Part shown: positions 20,113 to 64,000 of the stretch, piece after piece | Layout: every line of letters starts with the position of its first letter | How positions within the stretch are numbered: position 1 is the first letter of the stretch | Source of the DNA: Thermoplasmata archaeon | Lineage (GTDB): Archaea; Thermoplasmatota; Thermoplasmata; Lutacidiplasmatales; UBA184 | NCBI GenBank assembly: GCA_052326305.1 | Contig: JBKQPJ010000008.1 | Coordinates: 28,498-92,497 of the forward strand | Direction of reading: 5' to 3' | Length of the DNA: 64,000 bases | Notes under the pieces: generated by a model | What the model was told of the DNA's origin: nothing | The model's database searches: none | Seen by the model: the letters and a program-made list of their open reading frames with translations, nothing else | Translations under genes and position numbers: made by a program

Positions 20113-20131
20113 ACCGCGCCCCGGGCCCTCG

Positions 20132-46000: not shown

Positions 46001-48223
46001 ATGGTGGGCCCGGCGGAAGTCGTCGACCGCTGCGAGGACGGTCTGCCAGCGGTCCCACGCCGCCGAGAGCTCCTCGTCGGCCAGGGCGCGGTCCGCGCCC
46101 AGGTCGGACGACTCGAAGAGGCTCCGCGGCTCGGCGATGAGGCGGAGATGGACCGCCTCCGAGGTGAGCGGGGCGATCGGGGCGAGCGCGATCGCCGAGG
46201 CCCGGTAGAGGTAGATGAGCGTGCGCAGGGCGCTCCGCTTCGCGGCTGGGTTGCCCGGAAGGGCGAGCCGGGGGCGGATCATTTCCAGGTACTCGAGGAG
46301 GTCCCGCTCCAGGAACCGGAAGAGGTGGCGGTGCGCGGCCGCCGGCTCCCAGCGGTCGTAGTCGGCCAGGACCCGCAGGTGGGTCCGGGCCCATCGCGCG
46401 AGGATCGCCCGGTCCTCGACCTCGAGGTCGCGCGCGCTCGCGTCGGGCGGCTGGGCCCCTTCGCGCAGCAGGTCGCGTCCGCAGCTCGAGAGCAGCGCCC
46501 GGCTCTGGGAATAGAAGCGCTCGAGCCGCGCCTCCTCCTGACGGCACCGTTCCTCGAACGTCGTCGTCGATCCGCCCGCGCCGGCCGTACGGACGAAGGC
46601 GGAGCGGACGGCATCGGCGCCGTGCGCCCCGACGAGCCGGGGTAGGTCGACCCGGCTCACGGTCGGTTCGACGCTCAGGCCGAAGTCGGCGCTCGTCGCT
46701 TCGAGGCCGCTCATCGAGGCGAGGTGATGGACGAGCGTCGGGACCCGGCGCCGCTCGTTCGCGTAGACCCGGACGGTGTCGGCGGGGGAAAACGGATCGC
46801 AGCGGGCCCACGCCCCGAACGCCCCGCCGACCTCCGCGAGGAGCCGGCGGGCGACGAGCCGACGGGTCCCGCCGCAGGGGCAGGCGCGCGGACCGTCGGG
46901 AGCGTCGAGCCGTTCGCAGCGCGCGCACTCGAGCAGGGCGACGGCCTCGGGGTCGGAGGAGGGGATCGTCTCGCTCACCGGCCAGCGGGAGATCTCGATC
47001 TGCGCGATCGGCCGGTCGCGGGGCAGGAGCCGGGCGTACCGGTCCTTCTGCTCGGGGGCCAGGTGGTTCGGTTCGAGGCACCAGGCCCGTCCCGGGGTCC
47101 AGACCATCCGGTGCCCGCAGAGGGAGCAGTACGGGACCCCTCGGACGACGCGGAGGCGGGCGAGGACGGAGCCGCCCTCCATCAGATCGCGGCAGACGAA
47201 CTCGTTCGCGGTCTCGACGTCGAGCCCGGAGTACTTGTGCATCAACGTCGGGTCGAGCAATCCGCGCGAGGTGAGGAGCGGCCACCCGGCGATCCCGAGA
47301 CGCTCGGCGATCTCCGCGTCGGTCGGGCCGTGGCCGGGGACGAGCGGCACGATCCCCGTGCCCGTGTCCCCGACCTCGAGGTCCGCCTGGATCGTGCCGG
47401 CGGGCGGGTCGAGCGAGCCGCCGATCGGGAACTCGTGCCGGAGCGGGTAGGCGTACGCCCGTCCGACCCACTCCCGGCCCGGCCGCTCCTCGCGCACCTC
47501 GAGCTCCACGTCGGGCAGCCAGGCGTGCAATCGGGCGAGCGAGCCGTGGGACGTGAGGAGGAGCGCGCTCGATCCCTTGTGCCGGTACTCCACGACCGAG
47601 TAGGGGACGTCCGGGTGGACGAGCAGGGCGCTCGCCCCGAGGAGGCGCCACGGGGCGTCGACCCAGACGAGGGCGTCGACGGCGGGGTCGGTGCCCTGCA
47701 GGGGGAATCGCACGAGGAACGTGTCGCCGACCTCCTTCTGGTAGATGATCCGCTCGGGCGTGCGCGGGATGCGGCAGGAGAGGCAGACCCGCAGCGGGCC
47801 GTCCCGCGCGACGAGCACCCCCTTGCGCGCGAGCCGCGCGACGATCGCCTGGACCCCGGCCTGTCGGTCGGCGGTATCCCACGGCCGGTCGCCCGCGCCG
47901 CCGGTCCACAGGGCGAGCGACTCGAGCAAGGGGCCGAGGCCCGCGGGGGTCGCGTTGGCGCCGTGCCGCTCGTCGCGGAGCGTTCCGACCACGCCGCGGC
48001 GGCTGAGAAGGAGGTGGCGCGCGTCCACGTCCGCGGCGACCGCGCGGTGCGCGACCATCTCCGCGGGCTCGCCCGGGGTGAACGACCCTTCGAACTGACG
48101 TACGATCGGCCCATCGGTCGGCCCGAGGGTCCCGCCGGGGGGGGGCAATCGCCGGGACCTCCAGAACGTGCGGATCTCCGGTTCGAGCGTGCGAACGGTG
48201 AACCGCGGCGTCTCCTCCGGCAT
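43007..48223 (-). CDS. catalytically degenerate IleRS-like protein fused by a long Pro/Glu/Ala-rich linker to a DUF835-like C-terminal domain
   Basis: ATG at 48221-48223 ([21 protein letters not shown]).
- Class-I aaRS N-terminus with HIGH replaced (PAEMVAH).
- CP1 editing-domain motif [24 protein letters not shown].
- Cys knuckles CSLCGH...WCLE and CARCERLD...CPCGG.
- The KMSKS position reads DFGLS, followed by GADAVRSAF.
- Anticodon-binding-like helical region.
- About 600 aa of low-complexity P/E/A/S linker.
- C-terminal 130 aa ([20 protein letters not shown]...[14 protein letters not shown]...[10 protein letters not shown]) resembling DUF835. Confidence 0.6.
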
Positions 48224-48371
48224 CGGTCCCGCGGGCTCCCTCGACCGAGGGAGCGACCGGGGCGGGAATAAACCCTCGTTCGAGCCGAACCGCTGTCGGT
48301 CGGTCCGGCCGCTCGCCTCCGGAGCAACTCTTATGCCGCCGGTCATCTCCGTGGCGTCCGAGGAGACAGGA

Positions 48372-48758
48372 ATGGCCTGGACGCAGCAGGAGGTCCGGGA
48401 GCTGAAGGAGGGCCGGTACATGCTCATCGACGAGGAGCCGTGCCGCATCATCAGTATCCAGACGTCGAAGCCCGGGAAGCACGGAGAGGCGAAGGCGCGG
48501 ATCGATGCGGTCGGGGTGTTCGATGGCTCGAAACGGAGCGTCGTTTTCCCCGTCAAGCACAAGGTCCAGGTGCCGCTGATCGGCAAGAAGCAGGCCCAGG
48601 TCCTGTCGATGACCGACTCGGAGGTCCAGCTGATGGACCTCGAGTCCTACGAGACGTTCATGCTGCCGCTCGACGCGGAGACGAAGGCGGCGGTCTCTCC
48701 CGGAGCGGAGGTCCAGTACGTTGACGCGATGGGGAAGCGCCGGATCACCCGGACGTGA
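48372..48758 (+). CDS. eif5a: translation initiation factor 5A (aIF-5A)
   Basis: ATG at 48372 preceded by ggag. Hypusination loop [14 protein letters not shown]. 128 aa. Confidence 0.9.
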
Positions 48759-48882: not shown

Positions 48883-51800
48883 GTGTCCGGTCCGGGAGGC
48901 GTCGGACCCCTACCATCGTCCCGGTTGACCCGGATCCTTCAGGAGAAGGCGGAGGCGCTTCGCAAGAGGCGCCAGACCGCCGAGGTCGCCCTGAAGGAGG
49001 CCGAGGAACGGGTGGGCCAGCTCGATCGCTTGGGGATCTCCCCCGCGGGGGCGGCCGAACGGCTGCAGCAGCTGCACGAGCTCGTCCGCCGGTCGGACTG
49101 GGACCAGGTCGAGACCAGCGCGCAAGCGCTCCTCGCGGAGCTCGCCGCCGCCGTTCCCGGGCTCCTCGAGGAACGTCGCGTCCGCACGGGGGAATCGCTC
49201 GGGCGGCTTACGGGCCTCGGCATCCCCATCCCGCCCGAGCTCGCGACCGAGCTCGAGGCGCTCGCCCGCCCCGCGGCGGGCGGCCCGTGGACCGATTCGC
49301 TCGTCCGCCTGATGAAGGTCGAGGACGGGATCCGCCACGCCGCGACCGCGTACCTCGAGGGCGTACGGGGCCGCGCGATCTCGGTCGCCCGATGGTCCGG
49401 CCTCGGGCCCGAGCGGCTCGCCGAGTTCGAGCGCCTCCTCCCCAACACGGTCGACACCACCCGCGACGACGCCCTCGCCGACGCGGTGACGACGGTCCAG
49501 CGGAACCTCGTCGACGGCCTCCCGGAGGCCGCCGAGCGGCATCGCACGGTGCGGGAGAACGCCGAGCGCCTCCGTGCGACCGCCGAGGAGCTCGGCGCCG
49601 TGACCGGGCCGCTCGACGCCGCCCTCCGGGACGACGCGGCCGCCCCGATCGACCGCTGGCCGGAGACGGTGGCGGCCATCGACGCGGCGATCCCCGAGGT
49701 CGGCGAGGGGCTGCGCGAACGTTCGCGCCAGGTCCTCGAGGGCCTGCGCGGGTCGCTCGGCACGGTCGCCGAGTTCGAGGTCGACGCCGCCGGGGCGGTC
49801 GCCGCGGTCGAGTCCGCGCTCGCCCGGCTCCCGGCCACCGGACCGCTCGAGATCACCGGCCTCCTCGCGGAGGCACGGGCCGCGGCGGAGGAGCCGATCG
49901 TGACGGTCGTCGCGGGGCTCCTCGACGAGGTGCGTCCCCGCATCGCGGGGGCCCGTCGCCTCGGGCGCGACCCGAGCGAGGTGTTCTCGGCGATGAACCG
50001 GGCCCGCGAGGCCCTGCGCCTCAAGATCTACTCCGAGGCGCTCGCCGCCGCCCAGGAGGCCCTCGACCGCGTCAGCGGGCTCACCGAGGACCTCGACGCC
50101 GCCCGCGGGGAGCTCGGCACCCTGCAGGAGATGCTCCTCAAGTTCCGGGCGGCGGGGTTCCCGACCGAGCCGTTCGACGCCCCGGTGGCGCGCGTCCGCG
50201 CGCTCCTCGACCGGGCCGACGTTCCCGCCGCCCGGCAGGCGCTCCAGGAGGCGGTCCACCTCGCCGGCAAGGAGGCGCTCCGCTTCTTCGTCGACCGTTG
50301 GGCAACCCTCGACAAGACCCGCGCGTACGCGCACGAGCACGGGTTCGTCTCCCCCGAGACGGAGCAGGTCCTTGGGGAGGCCCGTGCCCTCCTCGACGCG
50401 GGCGACCTCGGCGGCGCCGCCGAGCTCCTCGCCCGGTTCGAGGTCGAGCTGCGTTCGAGCGCCGGGCCGTACGTCGCCCGGCGCGTCGAGGAGATGGAGA
50501 AGGCGTTCGTCGAGATCACCGACGGCGCCCTGACCGCTCCGGTCCGCCGCCTCCTCGCCGACGCGGACGTCACGCTCCGGGTCAAGCAGGACGTCGTCGG
50601 CTCGGTCGAGAGCCTGCACCGGGCGGAGCGGGAGTTCTCCGCCGTCTTCGGCGCCCACGCCTCCGCCCTCGTCGAGGGCCTCGAGTCGGAGGTCCGCGTC
50701 CTCAGCTCGATGGGCGGGACGAGCGACGAGATCCAGCGGCAGATCGACGAGGTCCAGCAGATCTTCAACATGGGCGATTTCGTCCAGGCGTCCCGCGCGT
50801 CGCAGGAGATCCGGACCCGCGCGCGCCAGCAGCAGCTCCTCCGCTCCGACGAGGCGATCTCCCACGCCAAGCTCGCGCTCGTCGAGCTCGAGCCGATGGG
50901 GCTCGACCTCACCTCCCTCCGCCCGCTCCTCGACGACGCGCAGTCGGCGGCGCGCGAGAACCGCTACCTCGACGCCTACCGCACGGCCACCGAGCTCGAG
51001 GAGGCCGCGGGCCGGGGCCGCGCCGCGGCCCAGACGGTCGTCGAGCGGATCTCCCGGCTCCAGGACCAGCTCGGCCGGCTCCATGCGAGCGGCGCGGACC
51101 CCTCGCCGTTCTACGAGGGGCTCCGCGAGGGGCGCGAGCAGCTGAACGCCCTTCGGTTCGACCGCGCGCGGACCCTGCTCGACGACCTCGACGGGCGCAT
51201 CTCCGCCGAGGCGGCCCGGATCGAGACCGAGCGGCTGCTCGGCGAGGTCGGTCTCCTGGTCGAGGAGGGCCGGCAGCTCGGGGCGCCGGTGGAGCCGATG
51301 GTCCGCCGGCTCGAAGGGCTCCAGACCGAACGGCATACCGCCGCGCCCGAGGCGACCCGCACGGGTTCGGTGCTCCTCCATGACGAGATCCTCGCCGTGC
51401 TGCGTCCGATCCTCGAAGAGAACCTCCGGTCGCTCGAGCGCGACCTCGACATCGCCCGCTCGGCGGGCGTGCCGCTCGACAAGATCGTCCCCCCCCTCGC
51501 CGAGGCCCGCCGGCGCGTGGCGCTTCCGGTGCCGACCGGCGCGGCGGCGCTGATCGACGAGGTCCGCAGCGCCCTGATCAGCACCCGCGGGTTCGTCGAG
51601 CACGCCGAGCGGGCGGCGAAGCGGGTGCACGAGGCGCTCGCCCAGGCGGACCTGTTGCGCGTGGAGGTCGGGGAGCTGCGCGCCCGGGCGGAGCGGTTCG
51701 ACACCTTCCTCGCCGGTCGGGAGTACGTACGGGTCGTCGAGCTCGCGGGCCCGCTCGAGCGGGAGCTGCACCAGGCGACGTACCGTCACGTGTCGAAGAC

Positions 51801-53376
51801 GCTCGCCGGCTTCCAGGCGACGGTCACCCAGCTGCGCCGCGACGGGGCGAACACCTCCGTCGCGGAGAACCTGCTGCACCAGGCCCGGATGTCGCTCGAC
51901 GAGGGCCGGCCCCTCGATTCCATCCAGCTCGCCGCCCGCAGCGAGCGGGAGCTCGAGCGGGCCGACCTGCAGCACAAGCTCGCGGAGGGGTCGATCGAGG
52001 CGGCCGAGCGGGCGATCGCGGGGGCGCTCGCCGAGGGGGCCGTCGCGACCGAGGCCCAGGATTCCCTGCGGAGCGCGAAGTCGTCGTACGTCAAGGGATC
52101 GTACGCCGACGTCTTCGAGCGGATGATCTTCATCTCGGACCTCGTCGCGACGGTGCGGGACGGCCTGCGCCGGGCCCGCGAGGCGATCGCGGTCGCCGAC
52201 CGGCAGCTCACCGAGGCGAAGGGCCTCGGCGCCGAGGCGGCGGACGCCACCGGCGAGCTCGCCGAGGCGCGCCACGAGCTCGACGCCGGCCACTACTCTC
52301 CGTCGGTCCGCCGGGCGCGCGAGGCGACCGAGATGGCCCGCTGGGCGATCGACCGCGCGTTCGCCGCCCCGCTCGGGGAGCTCCGGCGCCAGGTCGACGC
52401 GGTCCGCGCCGAAGGGATGGCGGGAGAGCTCGAGCCGCTCGAGGCGCTCGTCACCGGTGCCGAGGCCGCCGCCCGCGCCCACCAGTGGACCGAGGCGCGC
52501 GGCATGATCCTCCAGGCCGAGGACGCCGCCCGCCGTCTGTTCGAGGAGACGCTCGACGGACGCTGGCGGGAGGTCGAGGCCGACGCGAAGGAGACCGGGC
52601 CGGTGTCGCCCTCGGAGACCGCCCGGCGGGCCGACGTCGCGAGGAAGCTCGGAGAGCTGCGCTCCTCCCGGGACGTCGGGGGGGCCTTGCGCCTCGTGCA
52701 CGAAGAGCTCGAGATCGTCCGCGGCCAGCGTAAGGAGGTCGTTCTGCGCGCGGTCGCCGCGCTGCGCGACCGCCTTTGGGTCGGCGAGCGGCTCGGCGTC
52801 GACACGACGCCGGCGATGCAGACGTTCGGGGAGGCCCGCGCGTCCGCCGAGGCGGGGCGCCTGGGCGAGGCGACCGAGCTCCTGGCCCGGTCCGGTGCGG
52901 CCCTCGCGGAGGCGGTTCGGGGCCCGCTCGCCCGCCGGCGCAAGGAGCTCGCCTCCGAGGTGACGTTCGCCGAGGAGGGGCTCCACGTCAGCGTCGGGTC
53001 GGTGAAGGAGGAGCTGCGCGCCGCCGACGAGCTGCTCGGCGCGGGTCGGCTCCTCGACGGCGGCGCGAAGCTGCTCAAGATCGAGGAGGACCTGAACCTG
53101 CGCAAGTCGCTCCACCGCGAGCTCACGAACCTGCACTTCCTGATCGACGCGGCGCTCGGCCGGGCGGAGGAGCGGCAGATCGACACGTCGCGGGCCCGCG
53201 CGCTCCTCGACGAGTCGCTGCGCCTGCGCCCCGTCGACTACCCGGGGGCCCTCCAGAAAGCGCGCGAGGCGCTGAAGCTCCTGCAGGCCGACGGGGTCGT
53301 GATCGGGGAAACGGCGGCGACGGCCGCTCCCTCCTCGACCCCGTTCTGGCCGTTCCGGCGACCGCCGCCGTCCTGA
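48883..53376 (+). CDS. giant (1497 aa) alpha-helical repeat protein, hypothetical
   Basis: Continuous ORF rich in A/E/R/L with at least 12 recurrences of a module like [E/R]AR.LLD.GD...A..LL spaced about 90-110 aa apart. No enzymatic motif. TATA-like attaataa at about 48797 upstream. Confidence 0.6.
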   Translation: MSGPGGVGPLPSSRLTRILQEKAEALRKRRQTAEVALKEAEERVGQLDRLGISPAGAAERLQQLHELVRRSDWDQVETSAQALLAELAAAVPGLLEERRVRTGESLGRLTGLGIPIPPELATELEALARPAAGGPWTDSLVRLMKVEDGIRHAATAYLEGVRGRAISVARWSGLGPERLAEFERLLPNTVDTTRDDALADAVTTVQRNLVDGLPEAAERHRTVRENAERLRATAEELGAVTGPLDAALRDDAAAPIDRWPETVAAIDAAIPEVGEGLRERSRQVLEGLRGSLGTVAEFEVDAAGAVAAVESALARLPATGPLEITGLLAEARAAAEEPIVTVVAGLLDEVRPRIAGARRLGRDPSEVFSAMNRAREALRLKIYSEALAAAQEALDRVSGLTEDLDAARGELGTLQEMLLKFRAAGFPTEPFDAPVARVRALLDRADVPAARQALQEAVHLAGKEALRFFVDRWATLDKTRAYAHEHGFVSPETEQVLGEARALLDAGDLGGAAELLARFEVELRSSAGPYVARRVEEMEKAFVEITDGALTAPVRRLLADADVTLRVKQDVVGSVESLHRAEREFSAVFGAHASALVEGLESEVRVLSSMGGTSDEIQRQIDEVQQIFNMGDFVQASRASQEIRTRARQQQLLRSDEAISHAKLALVELEPMGLDLTSLRPLLDDAQSAARENRYLDAYRTATELEEAAGRGRAAAQTVVERISRLQDQLGRLHASGADPSPFYEGLREGREQLNALRFDRARTLLDDLDGRISAEAARIETERLLGEVGLLVEEGRQLGAPVEPMVRRLEGLQTERHTAAPEATRTGSVLLHDEILAVLRPILEENLRSLERDLDIARSAGVPLDKIVPPLAEARRRVALPVPTGAAALIDEVRSALISTRGFVEHAERAAKRVHEALAQADLLRVEVGELRARAERFDTFLAGREYVRVVELAGPLERELHQATYRHVSKTLAGFQATVTQLRRDGANTSVAENLLHQARMSLDEGRPLDSIQLAARSERELERADLQHKLAEGSIEAAERAIAGALAEGAVATEAQDSLRSAKSSYVKGSYADVFERMIFISDLVATVRDGLRRAREAIAVADRQLTEAKGLGAEAADATGELAEARHELDAGHYSPSVRRAREATEMARWAIDRAFAAPLGELRRQVDAVRAEGMAGELEPLEALVTGAEAAARAHQWTEARGMILQAEDAARRLFEETLDGRWREVEADAKETGPVSPSETARRADVARKLGELRSSRDVGGALRLVHEELEIVRGQRKEVVLRAVAALRDRLWVGERLGVDTTPAMQTFGEARASAEAGRLGEATELLARSGAALAEAVRGPLARRRKELASEVTFAEEGLHVSVGSVKEELRAADELLGAGRLLDGGAKLLKIEEDLNLRKSLHRELTNLHFLIDAALGRAEERQIDTSRARALLDESLRLRPVDYPGALQKAREALKLLQADGVVIGETAATAAPSSTPFWPFRRPPPS

Positions 53377-54338: not shown

Positions 54339-54611
54339 GTCCTCGGGCCGGGCGAGAGGTTGGGCGGCGGGCGAGGACGCTGGGACCGGAATTGCCGGGG
54401 GGCTCGGTCGGATCGAGACGAGCGCCCCCGGGGGCCCGGGCCACAAGGTCGGTAGACCGCAGCCGGCCGATCGGAGCGATCCCGCTCCAGCGTTCGGTCC
54501 CGGCCCCCCACCGATCCCGCGCCTCTCTCGGGCCGGAGAAGGGATTGGACCCGTTCCACCCCCGAACTCGGCAGAAAGGTTGAAACGTCCGCCCCGCTAC
54601 CGAGCGCCGGC

Positions 54612-54713
54612 GCTCCCGTAGTCTAGTGGTCAAGGATAGAGGCCTCTCGAGCCTTTGACGCGGGTTCAAAACCGGGCGGTTAGGGCCGTCCGGGGAAACT
54701 CCCGCCGGGAGCA
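54612..54713 (+). tRNA. tRNA-Glu (anticodon CUC) with a putative 29-nt intron in the T-loop (position 59/60)
   Basis: Manual fold:
- Acceptor GCTCCCG / CGGGAGC.
- U8 A9.
- D arm GTCT-AGTGGTCAAG-GGAT.
- Anticodon stem GAGGC / GCCTT with loop CTCTCGA (CTC at 54646-54648).
- T-stem GCGGG (54660-64), TTCAAA (54665-70), then T + CCCGC (54700-05) after 54671-54699.
- Discriminator A at 54713.
- No encoded CCA. Confidence 0.6.
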
Positions 54714-54745
54714 CTTACCACCGCGGGTAGTGCCACGTTACCTTG

Positions 54746-54805
54746 GGCCCCCGGAGGCCGACCCGAAGGATCAGCGGGCCTTTCACGAGTCCGGAAACGG
54801 GTGGA
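54746..54805 (+). repeat. direct repeat family R2, copy 1 (about 60 nt, immediately downstream of tRNA-Glu)
   Basis: cccccggaggccgacccgaaggatcagcgggcctttcacgagtccggaaacgggt is about 80 percent identical to 59157-59212. Confidence 0.7.
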
Positions 54806-55117
54806 TTGGCGAAGCAGGGGTTCCCTCCCTGCTCGTTCGGGGGCATTCCGGTTGCGTCAGAAACCCGCGAACGCCGCTGCTATACTCGGCCAAGGTCGCC
54901 TGTGAGCGCTGGGAGCGTAGCTGAACCTTCCACGCGACCGACAATTCAGCCCGACTGCCCGTGGTAGGTTCTCGCGAGGGGATGTGGACCTCGCCGCGGC
55001 GGAGCACGGTCCGACGGGCTCTGCCTCCCTCCCAATCCTGTTCGAGGTGGCAAGTTCCCAATCACGAAGGTAATGCTAAAGTATAGCACGCTGGTGCGCT
55101 GGCTCGCGGGATAGACG

Positions 55118-56467
55118 ATGCGGGGTCAAATCCGAAGTGCCGAGATCTGGGTCGTAGTCGTTATCGCGGTGATGGTGTGGGCGTCGGCGGGGGTCCTGGG
55201 TCTTGAGGCGGGGCACGCCCTTTCGCGAGGTGCCGTGCACAACCTTCCCTCGGTAGATCGAAAGCTTGGGGCTATCCTCCTGTCGGAGAACGAAGTATCG
55301 AGCCCCTCGGCGAGTCCACGACTCGACCCCGCAGCCGCGCAAGTCTACGCGGGCGAACTCACCAGCCCCAACGCGCAACTAAACGGATTCTTCGGAAGCT
55401 CAGTGGCGATCAGCGGCACGACGGTCGTCGTGGGGGCTTGGGGTGAGTCGGTCTCGGGTCAGAACAATGCGGGCCACGCCTACACGTTCAACGCCAGGAC
55501 GGGCGCCCTGGTCGCGACGCTTACAAGCCCCAACGCTCAGACGGGTGGGCTCTTCGGCCGCTCGGTGGCGATCACCGGCACGACGGTCGTCGTCGGGGCC
55601 CCCCAAGAGACGGTCTCGGGTCAGGGCGATGCGGGCCATGTCTACACGTTCAATGCCAAGACGGGCGCGCTGATCTTGACGCTTACAAGCCCCGACGCGC
55701 AACTCAACGGATTTTTCGGAAGTTCGGTGGCGATTAGCGGCAAGACCGTCGTGGTCGGGGCTTACGGGGAGATGGTCTCGGGTCAGACCGATGCAGGTCA
55801 TGTCTACACGTTCAACGCCAAGACCGGCGCGTTGGTCTTGACGCTCACCAGCCCCGGCACGCAGTCCTACGGTATCTTTGGCGGCTCGGTCGCGATCGGG
55901 GGCACGACGGTCCTCGTCGGGGCCGACGGCGAGACGGTCTCGAGTCTGAGCGGTGCGGGCCATGCCTACACGTTCAACGCCAAGACGGGCGCATTGATCT
56001 TGACGCTCACGAGTCCCAACCCGCAACTCAATGGATACTTCGGCTACTCGGTGGCGATCGGGGGCACTACGCTCGTCGTCGGAGCTGCCGACGAGACGCT
56101 CTCCGGGGGTCTGATCGCTGCGGGCCATGCCTACACGTTCAACGCCAAGACCGGCGCGCCGATCTCGACGCTCGCCAGCCCCAATGCCCAGGTCGACGGG
56201 GCTTTCGGCGGCTTGGTGACGATTAGCGGCAGGACCGTCGTGGTGGGAGCCTACGGCGAGGCATTCTCCGGCCTGAGCCAGTCGGGCCATGCCTACACGT
56301 TCAATGCCAAGACCGGCGGACTGATCTTGACGCTCACCAGCCCCAATGCACAGACTTCAGGAGTCTTCGGCAGCTCGGTGGCGATGAGCGGCAAGACTGT
56401 CGTGATCGGGGCAGATTTTGAGTCGGCCCTGGGTCAGAGCGGCGGGGGACATGTTTACCTGTGGTAG
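55118..56467 (+). CDS. secreted FG-GAP repeat (integrin-alpha-like beta-propeller) protein
   Basis: Signal peptide, then eight tandem 46-aa units (LTSPNAQ.NG.FG.SVAI.G.TVVVGA..E.VSGQ..AGH.YTFNAKTGAL...) giving 138-nt DNA periodicity from about 55330 to 56440. Confidence 0.8.
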   Translation: MRGQIRSAEIWVVVVIAVMVWASAGVLGLEAGHALSRGAVHNLPSVDRKLGAILLSENEVSSPSASPRLDPAAAQVYAGELTSPNAQLNGFFGSSVAISGTTVVVGAWGESVSGQNNAGHAYTFNARTGALVATLTSPNAQTGGLFGRSVAITGTTVVVGAPQETVSGQGDAGHVYTFNAKTGALILTLTSPDAQLNGFFGSSVAISGKTVVVGAYGEMVSGQTDAGHVYTFNAKTGALVLTLTSPGTQSYGIFGGSVAIGGTTVLVGADGETVSSLSGAGHAYTFNAKTGALILTLTSPNPQLNGYFGYSVAIGGTTLVVGAADETLSGGLIAAGHAYTFNAKTGAPISTLASPNAQVDGAFGGLVTISGRTVVVGAYGEAFSGLSQSGHAYTFNAKTGGLILTLTSPNAQTSGVFGSSVAMSGKTVVIGADFESALGQSGGGHVYLW

Positions 56468-56587
56468 GTTGGCTACGAGCGGGGCCCCGAGACATCCGCC
56501 AGATGCGAGGAGACCCGCTTATCGGCGAGGGATATCCGGTCATCCCGACGCGATCGACCTGCGCCTCCATCGCGCCCGAACGGGCCC

Positions 56588-57226
56588 TTGTCACCAGGGA
56601 GGATCTGCTCGACTTCGGAATTGACAGGTAACGCTTGCCTGGACCACCTGGTGAGACTCTTTCGCAAGGTGTGGTTTGGCGAGCCAATCGATTCGCAGGG
56701 TTCTTCATCAAGACCAATGTCATGGTCCCTCGCCGAGGGGGCTGCTTCGATGACGAAACACTGGCCGGGTCCTACCTACGAAGTGCGAGCGAACTTCAGA
56801 GCTCCGTTGAAGTTTGTGTACCGGTGGTGCACCGATTACACGCCGAAGGACGCGAGGTACGAGTCGGAGCATTACCAACGACGCATCCTACGGCGGTCAG
56901 TTCGTGAGGTAATCTATGAGGATTTGGAGGATACCAAGGAAGGTTGGTATTGGACCCGACACGTGGTTCGCCTCTACCCGCCGAATCGCTGGCACTCCAA
57001 CTCGGTTGGGAGCCACCGGGAGGTCTCCCTGGAGTATCGCCTCTCCCCGCTCCCCGGGGACCGGACCCAGCTAATCCTCACGGCTCGGCGGCGTCCGTCG
57101 GGCGTCGGAGGGAAGAATCCTCCGAAATCGCAATGGGAGCGTTCCATCACGGTGGCATGGAAGAGGTTTGGCCGGGTTCTCGAGCGAGACTATCGGAAGT
57201 CCTCACGGCGGCGCGCACGAACCTAA
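56588..57226 (+). CDS. SRPBCC (START/Bet v1-like) domain protein
   Basis: From about the internal Met (MTKHWPGPTYEVRANFRAPLKFVYRWCTDYTP...WYWTRHVVRLYPPNRW...) the fold pattern matches polyketide-cyclase/SRPBCC proteins. The N-terminal 55 aa may not be translated. Confidence 0.5.
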   Translation: MSPGRICSTSELTGNACLDHLVRLFRKVWFGEPIDSQGSSSRPMSWSLAEGAASMTKHWPGPTYEVRANFRAPLKFVYRWCTDYTPKDARYESEHYQRRILRRSVREVIYEDLEDTKEGWYWTRHVVRLYPPNRWHSNSVGSHREVSLEYRLSPLPGDRTQLILTARRRPSGVGGKNPPKSQWERSITVAWKRFGRVLERDYRKSSRRRART

Positions 57227-57347
57227 TCGGTACTCACCCGCCGGCGACCTCGATGATCGCTGAGAGGGAGTGAGTTCCAGGTCAGTGCGCCTTTCTGCCC
57301 ATAGGTGTTCGAATCGGGCGGGTTCTCTAAGGGGTAGTCGAAGGGCT

Positions 57348-57401
57348 GGGTTCTCTAACGGTGCGGGATGCCGCCGTTCTCGCACAACGCGTGCGGATCG
57401 C
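57348..57401 (+). repeat. direct repeat family R3, copy 1 (GGGTTCTCTAACGGTGCGG... about 54 nt)
   Basis: gggttctctaacggtgcgggatgccgccgttctcgcacaacgcgtgcggatcgc. A partial extra copy gggttctctaa lies at 57320-57330. About 80 percent identical to 63367-63420. Confidence 0.7.
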
Positions 57402-57928
57402 GGTCCTCCCGAGAGCGCGCGCGTCGCCCGCCACTGGTGCGAAGGTGTTCGGGCGTCCGGCTACCTGTCCGTTGAGGAAGGCGGGGCTGCGATCGCAACT
57501 CAGGTCGTTGTGCTTCCCCCCGACACGCCCCTGACGGTCCGAGGCCTTCTGAGGACTACGGACCAATCAATCGGGCTGCCGGTTCAGGTCCCGCCGAAGG
57601 CACTTCTCGATGGGCGTAGGCACAACCCCTTTTGAACCCGAGCGCGAACCGGTTCTTGCTCCGTAACCTGGCCGTGTTCGACTTTTCTCGTACGTATCGA
57701 TCGCCCGTCCACAGACTTTCGAGTTCTGACAGTATCCGCCCCCCACACAATACGGTGATTACGCGTCCTACGCACCAGGTACTCGACAGTGCTCTCCCAT
57801 CCTAGGCCACCCGTGCGACAGACCCGAGGGCGAGGCAACGTCGTACTATTCCAGGAGGCCGCGCCGTCACGATGAGGGTGGCCTCCCTTCTTTTCAGCAG
57901 CGCCGCACCCGTCGGTCCGAAGGGCTAC

Positions 57929-58537
57929 TCAACTTGGAAAAAACTCCGCCACCATTTGGCTGCCCCAGAAATGATTGAGGGAGGCCCCCGCGCCGTCGTC
58001 GACGTTCACATAGAAAGTGTACGAGCCCGCTGCGACGGTATCCGAGAACACCACTGAGGCGGTGAGCTGGTAGTCACCAGTCGGCTGGCTTGAAGGAACG
58101 ACATCCCAGGATGCGGGTTGCGACACAGCGCACGAAGCCGCGGATGTGGCGATAACGAGCTCCACTTCGTCCGAGGTGCCGGAGACGTGGCTGAAGGAGA
58201 GAATGGAGTCGTCAGTCACCAGGATCGTACCTGCCGACGGAACTGTAATGGAGACTAGACCACCTTGTTCGTTTACGCACTGCGACTGATTGAATTCAGT
58301 ACGGGTGAAGGTGTAGGAGCTGGCCATGACGATGCCCGCTCCGGCCGGACCCGTGGCTCCGGTGTGCCCCGAGGCCGTTAGAGCGATACCGAGAGCCGAG
58401 CCCCCGAGGACTAGCGCGACAACTCCGAGAACAATAGGGAGCCTACTAGGGGAGATCGCCCCGAGACTTCGAGGATTGGGTGGCGACACCGGTCGGTCGG
58501 CTGGGATAGGACTGCTCTCGGGCGACGCGGCGGACAT
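57929..58537 (-). CDS. membrane-anchored extracellular protein, paralog family A
   Basis: Ser/Pro-rich N-terminus, one TM (LPIVLGVVALVLGGSALGIAL), then an about 150-aa ectodomain ending ...SQMVAEFFPS. Paralogous to 61369-61986. Confidence 0.55.
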   Translation of the reverse strand: MSAASPESSPIPADRPVSPPNPRSLGAISPSRLPIVLGVVALVLGGSALGIALTASGHTGATGPAGAGIVMASSYTFTRTEFNQSQCVNEQGGLVSITVPSAGTILVTDDSILSFSHVSGTSDEVELVIATSAASCAVSQPASWDVVPSSQPTGDYQLTASVVFSDTVAAGSYTFYVNVDDGAGASLNHFWGSQMVAEFFPS

Positions 58538-59156
58538 GCACGCTCAGCGAAGTCCATACCTTAGACCTTTCGCAAAGGTCAGGGCGAGGGAATTGAGCGC
58601 TCCCTGACCGCCGGGATCATGGTGACCCACGACGAATAGGGCTTAGGTAGACTCAGGTCCTTGCGGGGCCACTCACCTCGCCCATGGATTAGAATCGACG
58701 TGACCCAGAACAACGGGATCTTCTTTCATCCGATTGCAGATTTGCCAAACGCTGCACAGAGGCTGTTGGGTCGAGGATTCAAACCTTTTCGCAAACACGA
58801 AGCCACCCTCGGGACCCCATTGTGATGGAAATCGCGCCCGTCAACGACACTTGTTCGCTCAGGGAGATCGTGACTCCAAAGGCCGAGGCGAGCGTCACGA
58901 ACCCGAAGGGAACCGAACCCCTCGTAGTCAACCCCTTAGGTTGAGACGGGTCGCGAACTTGCGAGCCTGCCGCCGTATTGAATTCGGGCCGGTTGAGTAT
59001 CGGGCGGACCGCTCGCCCACGGGCTCGACCTTTGTCTATGGGACGGGTTCTCTATGGGCCCGGTCCACCGACCCAGCCGAAAAGCTGATGGGGTATGGTC
59101 CCCCCCGGGAGCACTCCATTTTGGGGGGAATGCCTACCCCATATCCGCGCCCTGAG

Positions 59157-59212
59157 ACCCCCGGGGGCCGACCCGAATGATCGACGGGCTCTCCTCGAGT
59201 TGGGAAACGGAT
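59157..59212 (+). repeat. direct repeat family R2, copy 2
   Basis: cccccgggggccgacccgaatgatcgacgggctctcctcgagttgggaaacggat. Followed immediately by a tandem duplication. Confidence 0.7.
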
Positions 59213-59283
59213 CCTTCCTCCTAGGTACCTTGGCACGGCGGGGGCCGGATCCTTCCTCCTAGGTACCTTAGCGCGGTGGGGCC
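59209..59283 (+). repeat. tandem duplication, 2 x 37-38 nt (ggatccttcctcctaggtacctt[g/a]gc[a/g]cgg[c/t]gggggcc)
   Basis: Two adjacent near-identical units read directly from the sequence, in a non-coding stretch. Confidence 0.75.
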
Positions 59284-59750
59284 ATCTTGATGGTGGGAGG
59301 GGCCTTCTGTTTCTCATGCGACGCTCTTTCCGGTTCCTGCTTCCGTGTCTTCTGATCGTTGCGGGGGCGATCTTGATCGTCGGCGCACTGACCATTCGTC
59401 CTCCGCCCTGTCGCTGTAGCAGTGAATTCGGGTGCGATCCATGTACGGTCCCGGTCAACACAACTCCGTACGTACTGTTGGCGGGAGCGGCGTGCGCTAC
59501 CCTTGGAGGAGCATGGCTGGGATGGGGCCGACGTAGACATCGCCCTACTCGAGTTGCCCCGATGGGACAAACCCGTGGGCTGTCCTAGGAGCCCCAGGCG
59601 CAGAGATTTTAGTGACGGCGCCCTAACCCACGGGGGGATTTGGGAGCTGATGCGGGACGAACTTGCATGGTTCGACTTCCCCCGAGCACGATGGTTCTTC
59701 GCTCTCTTCACGATCGCAGGCGGGGTACTGGTCGCCGCGTCGGTCCTCTC

Positions 59751-60452
59751 CTATCTGACACCCCCCTTTGCCCAGGCCACGAACTGCGGGATATGCCACC
59801 CCCCAGGGGGGTGGGCCCGTTCCCGAACCGCGGCCCACCGGGTCGGGTCCACGCTCGCGGCCCCAACTCCCGTCACGAACTTGAGGAAATCCGGCGGTGC
59901 CCCGTGCTTCACTCCGGTCATCATTCCGGTGAGCTCGGATAGGTTGAGTGACGGCAGCATCCATCGCAAGTAACTCGCGAGCCTCTCCGGGGGCATCGCC
60001 CCCATGATCGCGCCCTGCATCGCCCGCATCTGGTCGTTGGTGAAGAGGTCCCTCATTCTGGGTACGATGGTGGCCTCTTCCTTGTTGATGTGGGCGAGAT
60101 AGAAGGCAAAGAACTCATTCGCCTCACGGGTGACGCGAGCTCCCAGCTCCATTCGTCGCTCCGGCACTTCGGTCCCCCCGAGTTCGTCGGCCATCCTCGT
60201 CAGGGCGACGAGTCTCCGCGTGATCTCGTTATGGTCCTCGAGGAGCTTGCGAATCAGTTCCGGTTCGAACGACTGCACGGAGGGGAATATGTGCGTGGCC
60301 TCGGCACCGGCGTGCTCGTGGAGAAGACAGACGACGCACGTGGCCGAGACCGCACGGGAGAACTCGTGCTGCAGGTCCGCGAGTACCGCGGCCGACGCGG
60401 CCTTGTCCGCAAAGTCCACGGCCAGAAGGCGGCCCCCGAGGCTGTAGATCAT
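59751..60452 (-). CDS. hemerythrin HHE cation-binding domain protein, tentative
   Basis: Paired His/Glu motifs (CLLHEHAGAEATHIFP, EDHNEI, FYLAHINKEEATIVP) spaced as in hemerythrin-like four-helix bundles. Confidence 0.45.
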   Translation of the reverse strand: MIYSLGGRLLAVDFADKAASAAVLADLQHEFSRAVSATCVVCLLHEHAGAEATHIFPSVQSFEPELIRKLLEDHNEITRRLVALTRMADELGGTEVPERRMELGARVTREANEFFAFYLAHINKEEATIVPRMRDLFTNDQMRAMQGAIMGAMPPERLASYLRWMLPSLNLSELTGMMTGVKHGAPPDFLKFVTGVGAASVDPTRWAAVRERAHPPGGWHIPQFVAWAKGGVR

Positions 60453-60799
60453 CGAGCGGAGCGCCTTGTGGATCGGCGTAAACAGGTCCTCGGTCGCTGT
60501 CAGTGGAAGCTCCCCCCGCCCCTAACTCGAGGTACGGCGGGGACTGTCGTTCGGCTACGTCGTCCACCCACCGCCGAAGGAAAAGGTCGCCTCAACCGGG
60601 TCGAATTCGGATGCGTTTCCGGGAGACGGTCACCGACCGGGCAGGTGGCGAAGATCCATCGCGTCGGCCTCTCGCCTACTGAGGCGTGGGGTCACGACCG
60701 CCGGAGGATTCGAACCTCGGCAGACGGATTCCCTTCTGTGGTCAGGGCTCCTGTACTTTTTGGAGGCGCGGTCCCTGACCCGTCAGGGGCCTTGGGTTC

Positions 60800-61192
60800 A
60801 TGACCGCGGGGATCACCGGGCTGTATGCGGTGTCGGTGCACGTTCGCGACATATCTCGCGCCCGATCCTTCTACGCCGATGTCCTTGGTTTCAAGGAGCT
60901 CAGCTTCGATCCGAAGGTCGGACGGGCCGTGTTCGCCTTGCCGGGAACTACTACTATCCTCCGGATGCACATCCAGGGGCCGGACGAAGGGGGACGAGAA
61001 CCCGGAACCGTGTCGGGCCTCATGTTTCGGCATCCCGACCCCGTCGCCGCGTGCGCGGAGATCAAACGTCGCGGTGGCACGGTGACGGACGAGGCCCGGC
61101 TCGTTGAGCTGCCCTCCGTCAAGTTCGTGCTCGGCGTGATTGCCGACCCGGACGGTAATGAGTTCGTGATCACGAACCGAACGGACCAGTAA
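60800..61192 (+). CDS. VOC-family (glyoxalase/bleomycin-resistance) protein
   Basis: ITGLYAVSVHVRDISRARSFYADVLGFKE N-terminal beta-alpha-beta-beta-beta module and a C-terminal repeat of it (FVLGVIADPDGNEFVI). Confidence 0.7.
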   Translation: MTAGITGLYAVSVHVRDISRARSFYADVLGFKELSFDPKVGRAVFALPGTTTILRMHIQGPDEGGREPGTVSGLMFRHPDPVAACAEIKRRGGTVTDEARLVELPSVKFVLGVIADPDGNEFVITNRTDQ

Positions 61193-61368
61193 TGAGGGGA
61201 CCCCCTCGCCGGACCCCGTCCGTAGCTCGTGGTCGCCTCGGTCGTCCCTCCTCCGGAATCGGGTAGGTCAACGAGCCGCTCCCCGGCCCTCACGTGGTGG
61301 CGGACCCCAAGGACGCCCCGCCGAGGGACATCGGCTCGCCAGCGAGCGCTCAGGTCGTCCGTCGAAAC

Positions 61369-61986
61369 CTACCCCGGGGTGTAGGTCGCAACCATGTTCG
61401 TTGAGTAGAAGTCATCGGACGTGCCGATCCCGACATACCCGAACACAGCGTACTTGTAGGTGCCGGCGCTGAGAACATGAAACACGTTTTCGACCGAGAC
61501 GGTCGGGGCAAACTCCTGAGTAGATTGGTTGGTATCGTAGAACCACTGGGACCCCCAGTAGGCCGCCGAGCAACCGTAGGCGGCGGTCGAATTGTCGACA
61601 AAGAGCTCGCCGCCGTCAATCGTTCCCGCGGTATGGAACACCACCAACTGGACCTGAGCGAGAACGACAATCGTTCCGCTGGCCGGGACAACGATGGATA
61701 CGTTGGCCCCGGCCCACGTGGCGCAGGTAGAACTTCCGTAATTGTAGAGCCCCGAGTAGTATTGGCTGGAGGCGGTCACCGAGGAGGCTGAGGCCGGGGC
61801 CGCGGCGCCGGCGGGGCCCGGAATCGCGAAGGCCAGAACGAGGGCAATCACTGCGATCGCAATCGCGGCGCCCGAAAGCACGGTCGAGAGCTGGGTCCCT
61901 CTCCCTGCTCGGCCAGGAGGAGAGGAGGCACCCACGTTGGAAGGGGCGGCAGAGTCCGGGGTGGCGGCGCTCGAGGTCGACTGCAT
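61369..61986 (-). CDS. membrane-anchored extracellular protein, paralog family A
   Basis: Same architecture as 57929-58537: S/P-rich N-terminus, TM (AAIAIAVIALVLAFAI), and an ectodomain with conserved Cys/Trp positions ending ...TNMVATYTPG. Confidence 0.55.
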   Translation of the reverse strand: MQSTSSAATPDSAAPSNVGASSPPGRAGRGTQLSTVLSGAAIAIAVIALVLAFAIPGPAGAAAPASASSVTASSQYYSGLYNYGSSTCATWAGANVSIVVPASGTIVVLAQVQLVVFHTAGTIDGGELFVDNSTAAYGCSAAYWGSQWFYDTNQSTQEFAPTVSVENVFHVLSAGTYKYAVFGYVGIGTSDDFYSTNMVATYTPG

Positions 61987-62376
61987 AGCCTCGGTGGCAG
62001 ACCCGACCCCTGTTAAAGGTTCCGTTCTGCGGGTCCTGGGAACAGCGACGTGCGCGGGCCCAGCCGTCCCGGGCCACGGGCGGATCAGCAGAGAGATCGG
62101 TCGATCCGCCTTGGGAGGTGTCTCGCGGGTGCGGTGGCTGGCAGGCGCCCCGGTCTTGGCCGATCCAACCCCTCGCTTGGGACGTCCTTCTCAGCCCATT
62201 CTGTCGGGGCCAGTTATCCAGATCCGAATAGGGATTCTTCTGTGAGGGCGTGATCGACCTTCGGGTCGGGTGTAGACAACCTGTGGATTGGCAAACACCC
62301 CGTTCACCGAATTTGGATCTGTAGCGGGCCGCGAAGGTCAATAGTCGGCGAGACTTCACATTAACGGGCGCGTTCG

Positions 62377-63165
62377 ATGGCCCACCACCGTCGGCCGACT
62401 TCGGCATCAATCGCGACGGGAGTTGTACTCGGGGTCGTGATGGCCCTTACCGGCCTTTCCGGGTCTTGGACACCATTCGAACACACGGTGTGCGGCCGCG
62501 AAGCTTTGCTCTCGCACGAGGACCGACGTTACATTCCTGCGTTCTTTCTGAATTCGCCATACGGTGGCCGAGCGTTCGGGCTGAGCCAGATTCCGTGGCC
62601 GATCCAGCCGGGCGTGACTATTGGTGTGGGCGGTCCAACCTCGAACGGAACCGTGATAACTGACTTTGTCGGGGGAGTCAACGTAAGTCTCTACCAGCTC
62701 CAGAATTTCACCAACTTGGGTCTCGGAATCAACGAACCTTGTCGTGCCTACTACGGTGTCGAGCTTCAGCTCCCTCATCTCAACCGGTCGATAGAAACCT
62801 GGATTCCGACCGCGTCAAATCTGACAGATGCTGGAGAAGTGGACAACTTCTCAATCCTCAGTACCCCCGATAACCAATCCACCGTCGCTTTCTTCAACAA
62901 CAGTTTCTCAGTCTGGAACGCCGACAGTGTCTCCACGTGTGGGGGAGTGGCGCAGACAATCCCGGTGAAGTCTAGCTCTCTGACGATCGGCATACCATTC
63001 ACCGTCGGAGGTCGGACCCTCACTATACCATACATACTGCCGTTCGCACAGAATTTCACATACCGCTTTCCCGCGAACTTTGGGAGCTGGGAGGTCGGTA
63101 ACCTATCCGAACCCGGGGGCCCCGGCGGAGGGTGGGCGTTCAACTTTCTTGGCGGATGCCCTTGA
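62377..63165 (+). CDS. secreted N-glycosylated protein, hypothetical
   Basis: N-terminal TM/signal (IATGVVLGVVMALTGL) and at least 12 N-x-S/T sequons. Lower GC than the core genome. Confidence 0.5.
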   Translation: MAHHRRPTSASIATGVVLGVVMALTGLSGSWTPFEHTVCGREALLSHEDRRYIPAFFLNSPYGGRAFGLSQIPWPIQPGVTIGVGGPTSNGTVITDFVGGVNVSLYQLQNFTNLGLGINEPCRAYYGVELQLPHLNRSIETWIPTASNLTDAGEVDNFSILSTPDNQSTVAFFNNSFSVWNADSVSTCGGVAQTIPVKSSSLTIGIPFTVGGRTLTIPYILPFAQNFTYRFPANFGSWEVGNLSEPGGPGGGWAFNFLGGCP

Positions 63166-63366
63166 CGAGAGAATAGCTCAGATGCTCTCTTCGGCCGAGC
63201 AACTTTCCGTGCCGTGAAATCAGCCTCCGGGCGGTCGGAAGGCTGGACTTTGCTGACGGAGAACGCGCACCTCCAAACATTCAACAGAAGCTGAACCTTC
63301 AAGGTCTTGTTCGAGAAGTGTCCGATCTCACCTGAACAAACGTCGCCCCACGGTTAGCCTAGGGGT

Positions 63367-63420
63367 GGGTTCTCTAACGGTGCGGCACACCGGCGTTCTC
63401 GCGAAACGCGTCCGGATTGC
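63367..63420 (+). repeat. direct repeat family R3, copy 2
   Basis: gggttctctaacggtgcggcacaccggcgttctcgcgaaacgcgtccggattgc. Lies in a convergent intergenic gap, as does copy 1. Confidence 0.7.
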
Positions 63421-63508
63421 TGCCCTTCCTTGGGCAGGCAGGATGCGTCACTCGCGCGCACCGGCTCCGCGGTCCCGGTAAGAAGTCTCGGTCGACCTCG
63501 GAGTGCGG

Positions 63509-63958
63509 TCAGCAGGCGGCGCGCTCGAACGCCAGGAGCGACGTGGTCGTTGGGTTGCCTACGGTTGGCAGCGGCCCGGGAACCACCTCGCTAATATTCC
63601 AGACCCAACCTGGAGGCAGCGAGTACATCGCGGGCAGGATACCGTAGGGACCAGGTCCGCTCCACTCGGTGTACCCCGAGGATCGAATCGGTCCGATGGG
63701 GAGATGCATACTGACCACAATCTGGTACTTCGCCACTGCCGGGAGCGTGATGCTGAGGGGATCCGGGAACAAGGGTCCGCAGAGCCGGATTGACTCCGAC
63801 ACCGTGCCGGTGGAGGCGTTGCCGGTATGAAAGCTTGTATCGAACCACAACGCAGCCCCCGGGGTTGAAGTCTCCGTCGGGGTGCATGTCTGCGGAGGAA
63901 CCTCGTGGAGTTCCACAGCGTCACTTGAGTTGTCGGGTAACGGCAGAATCGTCGTCAA
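63509..63958 (-). CDS. hypothetical extracellular protein, possibly truncated by the window end
   Basis: ORF runs to near the window edge. Trp/Pro/Gly-rich sequence with possible weak similarity to paralog family A. Confidence 0.25.
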   Translation of the reverse strand: MTTILPLPDNSSDAVELHEVPPQTCTPTETSTPGAALWFDTSFHTGNASTGTVSESIRLCGPLFPDPLSITLPAVAKYQIVVSMHLPIGPIRSSGYTEWSGPGPYGILPAMYSLPPGWVWNISEVVPGPLPTVGNPTTTSLLAFERAAC

Positions 63959-64000
63959 GTTCCCGCTCGCGCCGCAGGTTAGGCCCCCGACTTCTTCCGC

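Follow-up and report, generated by a model that had tools for sequence, protein, structure and literature searches.

A T-loop bulge-helix-bulge intron at position 59/60 in a tRNA-Glu(CUC) gene of Thermoplasmata

The window, that is, the whole stretch of 64,000 nt of DNA that was analyzed, contains at 54612-54713 (+) a real tRNA-Glu(CUC) gene that is interrupted in its T-loop by an archaeal intron of the bulge-helix-bulge (BHB) type, which confirms an observation made in a preliminary description of this DNA. Very probably, this is an expressed Thermoplasmata gene with a BHB intron at position 59/60 that is processed by EndA and RtcB, splicing being what we infer from the analysis presented here.

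The 102-nt unspliced form is composed of the elements GCTCCCG TA GTCT AGTGGTCAA GGAT A GAGGC CTCTCGA GCCTT TGAC GCGGG TTCAAA, followed by the insert accgggcggttagggccgtccggggaaac and then by T CCCGC CGGGAGC A. Exon 1 (54612-54670, +) comprises the acceptor 5' strand, the D-arm, the anticodon arm with the anticodon CTC (54646-54648, +), the variable loop, the T-stem 5' strand (54660-54664, +) and, at its 3' end, T-loop positions 54-59 (TTCAAA, 54665-54670, +). The intron (54671-54699, +), 29 nt in length and with a boundary set by the intron-less ortholog L102 (see below), consists of a1, an 8-bp hairpin (54672-54679 with 54686-54693, loop 54680-54685), the stretch ggaa (54694-54697), which pairs with U54, U55, and C56 and faces A57, and a terminal ac (54698-54699). 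Exon 2 (54700-54713, +) supplies U60, the T-stem 3' strand CCCGC (54701-54705), the acceptor 3' strand CGGGAGC (54706-54712), and the discriminator A73 (54713). CCA is not encoded by the gene, the bases directly 3' of 54713 being CTT. All the elements that the preliminary description had listed for a tRNA-Glu(CUC) are thus in place, including the anticodon. When the insert is deleted in silico, ARAGORN folds the remainder into a cloverleaf with 7/7 pairs in the acceptor stem, 5/5 in the T-stem, and a TTCAAAT loop, which bears out the earlier claim that splicing restores the T-arm GTTCAAATCC. The predicted spliced junction is GGGTTCAAA joined to TCCCGCC or, in a longer form, GACGCGGGTTCAAA joined to TCCCGCCGGGAGCA(CCA). 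Only one copy of the insert is present in the window, even when up to 3 mismatches are allowed, and a structure-aware scan of the window detected no other T-loop-interrupted tRNA, the 2 further matches not being tRNAs.

The exact position of the junction is provided by genes that have no intron. Acceptable cloverleaves are likewise obtained when the intron is moved by -2 to +2 nt, and these alternatives were discarded on the basis of L102, which is one of two Thermoplasmata metagenome-assembled genomes (MAGs) with an intron-less tRNA-Glu(CTC) gene among the matches listed (the other being L072). The L102 gene is identical at 73/73 bases to the predicted spliced product with TTCAAA joined to T and does not match the alternative shifted by one base, while the L072 gene differs from the predicted product at one base. 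The one-base ambiguity that the preliminary description had left at the boundary is therefore settled in favor of TTCAAA before and T after the insert, and its assignment of the 29-nt insert to site 59/60 is upheld both by a reading of the sequence and by the match to L102.

A BHB motif can be folded at these junctions, as had been proposed, with two 3-nt bulges on opposite strands and a geometry that is found in 41/41 sequences (the window and 40 relatives). The outer helix h is the T-stem, in which G49-G53 form 5 bp with C61-C65 according to both the minimum free energy (MFE) structure and RNAalifold. The 5' bulge is A58, A59, and a1 (54669-54671, +), with a predicted 5' splice site after 54670, a junction confirmed by L102, and the 3' bulge is a28, c29, and U60 (54698-54700, +), for which the predicted 3' splice site follows 54699. 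In each bulge, the predicted cut comes 3' of the second nucleotide. Canonical archaeal introns are likewise cut at this point, a rule that fits the A-I pair geometry. Between the bulges lies the central helix H, whose 5' strand U54 U55 C56 A57 (54665-54668, +) shows conserved in-register pairing (U54:a27, U55:a26, and C56:g25), with A57 opposite g24 as an A•G. The inner helix h' is formed by c2-g9 with c16-g23 (8 bp, including one G-U) and is capped by the loop uuaggg. In the unconstrained MFE structure of the 102-nt precursor, positions 1-7 pair with 95-101 and 49-53 with 90-94, so that the T-stem is closed over the insert hairpin. Compared with the 4 bp expected of an hBHBh' motif, H in the window has three standard pairs plus A57•g24, and it is predicted neither by MFE nor by RNAalifold; across sequences, MFE recovers H in 4/41, and RNAalifold recovers h and h' but not H. 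The window deviates from the strict motif solely in the A•G that terminates H. The relaxed classes (hBH, HBh', or BHL) do not apply, as neither the window nor any of the 40 relatives lacks either of the 3-nt bulges. There is no match to group I or group II introns either, the insert being 29 nt long and the Rfam intron families being unmatched both at gathering score and at an E-value of ≤10.

How readily might such a structure arise by chance? In 2,000,000 shuffles of the 29-mer, an inner helix of ≥8 bp together with three in-register H pairs was found at a frequency of 6e-5. In this G/A-rich insert, 16% of the shuffles have the three H pairs on their own, so H considered by itself carries little weight. 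Since the full architecture is this rare in shuffles and is found again, with divergent inserts, in 21 other genomes, a chance origin is excluded.

These genomes were identified by scanning GTDB species genomes with a pattern that combines the unusual D-arm and GGTTCRAA, matches being taken with or without a following insert, which produced at least 120 loci. At least 21 other species-level Thermoplasmata genomes have a tRNA-Glu(CTC) with a 28-32-nt insert exactly at 59/60, and the exons of these 21 orthologs show 0-3 base differences from those in the window. Similar inserts at 59/60 are present in at least 16 tRNA-Asp(GTC) genes from similar high-GC Thermoplasmata MAGs (28-33-nt BHB inserts) and in at least three tRNA-Gln(CTG) genes from Micrarchaeota/Anstonellales (L048, L074, and L085; 30-34 nt). 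The inserts are almost wholly divergent except at the 3' end, which reads g[g/u]gaaac in Glu, the part that forms H and the bulge, and usually ccggaac in Asp. Pairs 54:n-2, 55:n-3, and 56:n-4 are kept in 41/41 sequences, i2:n-6 is paired in 40/41, and both bulges are 3 nt in 41/41. At 57:n-5, there are 16 G:C, 6 A:U, 1 G:U, and 18 A•G (the window among these), and all four H pairs are formed in 23/41 sequences. H is supported by the conserved complementarity of U54 U55 C56 within a hypervariable intron, by the covariation at 57:n-5, and by the fixed bulge sizes.

Covariation was quantified on a gapless junction-anchored alignment of 43 columns with the h-B-H-B-h' structure. Standard pairs occupy 88.2% of cells vs 66.8% after shuffling (0/500 shuffles reach the observed value, a count that overstates independence since the aligned sequences are related), and pairing falls to ≤58.8% when partners are slid by 1-3 columns. 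The covariation score is 0.513 vs 0.162 in shuffles, and in 9/9 inner-helix pairs both partners have changed. Because the junctions were placed with the help of the outer helix, its 100% pairing is partly a matter of construction.

The other tRNAs with a 59/60 intron show some features of their own. The Asp genes are L003, L012, L019, L021, L025, L026, L029, L032, L047, L053, L063, L064, L070, L081, L095, and L101, and a G57:c pair between exon and intron brings their central helix to 4 bp. In the MAG TL1-5.bin18, the Asp gene has its intron (L081) and the Glu(CTC) gene has none (L102), so the two introns differ in distribution. Locus L032 (DAIDCO010000070.1) is titled "bacterium isolate clean3188" and yet encodes an archaeal tRNA-Asp(GTC) with a 59/60 BHB intron at 70% GC; the label or the binning of this MAG is probably wrong. 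The Gln(CTG) introns display a perfect hBHBh' motif (L048 3674-, L074 6163-, and L085 3300-), and in L048 and L074 the BHB is the MFE structure itself.

The intron has clear consequences for annotation. On the raw sequence, ARAGORN calls a tRNA-Glu(ctc) at 54612-54699 (88 nt) with a wrong 3' end, the insert hairpin being taken as T-arm, with a 19-nt unpaired "variable loop" and two acceptor mismatches; the -i option, which covers anticodon-loop introns only, gives a misfold identical to that of the default run. At gathering score (29 bits for RF00005), the Rfam tRNA model has no match anywhere in the 64,000-nt window. With relaxed thresholds, RF00005 scores the unspliced locus at 28 bits, aligning only 54616-54679 with mismatches in the T-stem, whereas the intron-less L102 gene, which equals the predicted product, scores 68.1 bits over its full length, above the gathering threshold and 40 bits more than the unspliced locus reaches in its best contiguous alignment. 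The preliminary description had named beforehand a better-scoring contiguous fold as a result that would speak against an intron, and these scores point the other way. Its prediction that default scanners would miss the gene stands for Rfam, which falls just under threshold, but not for ARAGORN, which finds the gene, though misfolded and with a wrong 3' end. tRNAscan-SE 2.0 in archaeal mode searches for non-canonical BHB introns by default (PMC8450103), so 59/60 introns are probably detected silently in MAG annotations. The present analysis corrects the 3' end and the fold of the ARAGORN call and indicates that, with tools that lack a BHB search, tRNA-Glu(CUC) and tRNA-Asp(GUC) will be miscalled or missed in the soil MAGs of this clade, which affects estimates of tRNA complement and completeness.

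Up to ~54 kb, the window has a GC content of 69-76% and encodes archaeal core proteins (prefoldin, FtsY, L15e, PAC2, KaiC-like, Nop5, L12/L10/L1, L44e, and aIF2α) as well as aTrm56, a mevalonate-kinase-like protein, aIF5A, and a DUF835 protein. The segment at 46.9-54.3 kb, with aIF5A, a 1497-aa open reading frame (ORF), a 151-aa ORF, and YbjQ followed by the tRNA, is syntenic with many intron-bearing loci at 67-71% nucleotide identity, MAGs AcS1-45 and AcS1-67 included. These two and AcS1-3 are listed as Ca. Lutacidiplasmatales, TMEG soil Thermoplasmatota with ~69% GC (PMC9287336, Sheridan et al.). AcS1-3 corresponds to the intron-bearing locus L033, and the syntenic locus L082 is labeled Ca. 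Lutacidiplasmatales. This synteny implies that the genes are orthologs within a Lutacidiplasmatales-like clade. The taxonomic pointer of the preliminary description, which looked to Crenarchaeota and a few other archaea, needs amending: the host is not a crenarchaeon but a ~70% GC Thermoplasmata syntenic with Ca. Lutacidiplasmatales MAGs. Upstream of the tRNA, 39 to 24 nt before its start, lies the promoter-like A/T-rich element aGAAAGGTTGAAACGT (54573-54588, +), a putative BRE/TATA, and orthologous loci have cGAAAGGCTCAAAGAG at an equal distance (~40 to 25 nt upstream). Judging from position and conservation only, aGAAAGGTTGAAACGT is consistent with an archaeal promoter. Two large ORFs flank aIF5A. 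One, at 43007-48586 (-), encodes 1859 aa with an Anticodon_1 domain, a Pro/Glu/Ala-rich low-complexity region, and a C-terminal DUF835, and thus has the anticodon-binding domain of class-I tRNA ligases but no match to a catalytic tRNA-ligase domain. The other is the 1497-aa ORF (48883-53376, +), which is Ala/Arg/Glu/Leu-rich, has no Pfam match, and keeps its synteny across relatives.

Directly after the tRNA (54714-64000), GC falls from ~0.72-0.74 to 0.60-0.67, and synteny with relatives ends there. In most relatives, a shared gene of ~270 aa is found 80-350 nt past the tRNA; it is displaced by ~1.1 kb in L090 and by ~4.2 kb in L043 and is absent from the 9.3 kb downstream of the tRNA in the window. 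The 3' flank of tRNA-Glu(CUC) is a variable hot spot. In the window, this flank contains a degenerate direct repeat with copies 4.4 kb apart (53-60 nt), the 53-nt cores of which (54748-54800 and 59158-59210) share 81% identity (E = 6e-10). Before the downstream copy comes a collinear 15-nt stretch resembling the 3' exon (TCCCGCCGGGAGCACT vs cCCCcCCGGGAGCACT, 59101-59115), which is not significant alone (E = 0.3). Similarity begins approximately at the exon-2 boundary, the intron and exon 1 sharing nothing with the downstream copy. Between the two copies lie an FG-GAP-repeat protein and two ORFs that match no family, and no comparable repeat was seen in relatives. No integrase or PHROG match was found downstream of the tRNA in the window, nor was any att-like repeat of the 3' exon significant on its own. 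The 4.4-kb-spaced repeat may be an old integration footprint. Two related ideas were rejected: that the intron interrupts a viral or plasmid attachment site, because the contiguous 24-mer of T-arm plus acceptor is absent from IMG/VR viral contigs, and that the insert is a dispersed repeat or a mobile sequence, because it is single-copy in the window. The low-GC segment has other repeats as well. There are four copies of a family with the core GGGTTCTCTAACGG, at positions including 57313-57410, 59038-59070, and 63360-63429, with 69-nt copies at 57342-57410 and 63361-63429 that are 83% identical, and a tandem 38-nt duplication (CGGATCCTTCCTCCTAGGTACCTT...) at 59208-59281. The FG-GAP protein (55118-56467, +), just downstream of the tRNA, is a 449-aa protein with seven FG-GAP_2 repeats, encoded by 162-nt tandem DNA repeats (55294-56458) with 67-81% identity.

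Three other readings of the locus were weighed against a spliced intron. To the idea of a contiguous 88-nt tRNA-Glu (54612-54699) that is not spliced, with a long variable region and the GGCGG/CCGTC hairpin as T-arm, we attach virtually no credence. It is exactly what ARAGORN calls by default, and the near-threshold local Rfam match of 28 bits is contiguous, but in this fold the acceptor stem has two mismatches, the T-loop (ttagggc) is non-canonical, and 19 nt that contain a perfect GGTTCAAA stay unpaired, while the perfect CCCGC-CGGGAGC-A located downstream is ignored. Moreover, its "T-arm" varies among orthologs, whereas GCGGGTTCAAA...TCCCGCCGGGAGC is invariant, and the gene equivalent to the spliced form scores 40 bits more than an alignment of this type. 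It is exceedingly unlikely that a small insertion or recombination scar, possibly tied to the variable DNA downstream, has turned the locus into a tRNA pseudogene. The drop in GC and the end of synteny after the tRNA would fit such a scenario, as would the 53-60-nt flank repeat found again 4.4 kb downstream after a 15-nt stretch resembling the 3' exon. A scar, however, would not be expected at an identical position in at least 21 other species-level genomes, with exons under strong purifying selection and with inserts that change and yet keep the hairpin and the BHB register via compensatory changes; furthermore, the downstream repeat is unrelated to the intron and exon 1, and the insert has no second copy in the window.

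The third reading, which we hold very unlikely, is that the mature RNA retains the insert, which would enlarge the T-arm, or that the insert is removed without EndA, by other RNases or by self-splicing. Cleavage is indeed deduced, and the central helix is thermodynamically marginal, which leaves some room for this reading. Against it, a T-loop with a 29-nt interruption could not form the conserved T-loop/D-loop elbow, 29 nt is far below the size of group I and II introns, none of which has an Rfam match here, and the only features conserved in the insert (two 3-nt bulges, a four-position helix, and flanking helices) are those that make an EndA substrate. The reading we prefer is, therefore, that of a BHB intron spliced by the archaeal tRNA pathway.

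In this pathway, the precursor would fold with the T-stem as outer helix, the 5' half of the T-loop pairing with the 3' end of the intron as a short central helix and the rest of the intron forming the 8-bp hairpin, so that two 3-nt bulges on opposite strands would give an hBHBh' motif. EndA would recognize the BHB and cut within both bulges (PMC6379350, PMC4090602). RtcB would then join the exons into a 73-nt tRNA with a TTCAAAT T-loop, to which CCA would be added post-transcriptionally. T-loop modifications such as Cm56 would come after splicing, because C56 is base-paired in the central helix of the precursor; the gene that would serve for Cm56, aTrm56 (tRNA C56 2'-O-methyltransferase), lies in the window at 20069-20653 (+).

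Neither EndA nor RtcB is encoded in the 64,000-nt window; a survey of near-complete archaeal genomes, those of Thermoplasmatota among them, detected both in every one (PMC12918454). No EndA from a high-GC Thermoplasmata was present among the best 120 of 5,349 homologs obtained with a profile of five PDB EndA domains; the most GC-rich of the matches, P0014, was rejected as the EndA of this lineage since it maps to unrelated MAG accessions, and the T. acidophilum EndA (2ohc) was not among the PDB alignments listed. By tblastn, EndA was found only in DPANN loci and in L121/L122. In several DPANN loci, the EndA gene and the matched tRNA are no more than a few kb apart (L014 5993-6505, L052 4234-4740, L097 900-1337, and L100 1406-1903). 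The EndA of Thermoplasma is of the α'2 type, with a "narrow" specificity (PMC6379350). Since relaxed motifs are those that have lost a bulge and both bulges are present here, such a narrow enzyme should in principle suffice for this intron. The one point on which the tolerance of a narrow EndA might be tried is the A57•G that recurs beside the 5' bulge (18/41).

These findings provide a comparatively validated tRNA intron at a non-canonical position in Thermoplasmatota, for which reviews describe canonical positions only and a narrow EndA (PMC4090602, PMC4033280, PMC6379350). With introns in at least 21 genomes and two tRNAs, and with intron-less relatives, they offer a natural system for studying how introns are gained, kept, and lost, which also bears on whether a strict BHB placed anywhere suffices for an α'2-type enzyme. 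A broader proposition, which we regard as rather unlikely, is that an order-level clade (Lutacidiplasmatales and relatives) stably keeps 59/60 BHB introns in Glu(CUC) and Asp(GUC), contradicting the 37/38-only pattern. If this were true, either the EndA of the clade would have gained tolerance, for example to the recurrent A57•G, or selection would maintain the introns for a function. One possible function is to split the attachment sequence, running from T-arm to 3' end, that is used by integrating elements, an idea prompted by the variable hot spot in the 3' flank of the tRNA; another is to order T-loop modification after splicing.

How does this intron compare with known systems? Reviews state that Euryarchaeota with α4 or α'2 EndA carry single introns at the canonical position only (PMC4090602, PMC4033280). 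Such 37/38 introns, as in Thermoplasma and Haloferax, have the same succession of helix, 3-nt bulge, four-position helix, 3-nt bulge, and helix, with the same cleavage sites in the bulges. They reside in the anticodon loop, however, with the anticodon stem as outer helix and anticodon-loop nucleotides in the central helix, whereas here the T-loop is interrupted, the T-stem is the outer helix, and T-loop nucleotides 54-57 form the central helix. Crenarchaeota and Thaumarchaeota commonly have non-canonical introns (PMC8450103). Those of Crenarchaeota, Thermoproteales above all, are likewise short BHB introns outside 37/38 in which exon-intron pairing builds the motif (Marck & Grosjean 2003 and Sugahara et al. 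2008, as reviewed in PMC4090602 and PMC8450103), and they are excised by EndA and ligated by RtcB, the same route that we propose here. Crenarchaeota, however, have an (αβ)2 EndA with a Crenarchaea-specific loop, and among their introns many have relaxed motifs or share a gene with further introns; in the present lineage, which is of the euryarchaeal type, each interrupted gene has a single well-formed motif. The literature searched contained no description of T-loop introns from Thermoplasmata or Thermoplasmatota, and the Lutacidiplasmatales paper makes no mention of tRNA introns (PMC9287336). A close precedent is ARMAN-2 (Ca. Micrarchaeum acidiphilum), which has introns at the same 59/60 site with the T-stem as outer helix, of hBH type in pre-tRNA-Cys(GCA) and of strict hBHBh' type in pre-tRNA-Pro(GGG) (PMC3239211, Fujishima et al. 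2011); the hBH motif of its tRNA-Cys has been used as a test substrate for EndA (PMC5829648). ARMAN-2, though, belongs to DPANN, whereas the present gene is a Thermoplasmata tRNA-Glu(CUC). Its relaxed tRNA-Cys motif needs a broad-specificity ε2 EndA, while both bulges are present here, and introns occur in 56% of its tRNA genes, as compared with Glu(CUC) and Asp(GUC) only as documented for this clade. BHB introns at 59/60 were thus already known, and their presence in the tRNA-Glu(CUC) of Lutacidiplasmatales-like Thermoplasmata is new with respect to the literature searched, a taxonomic extension that we consider modestly surprising.
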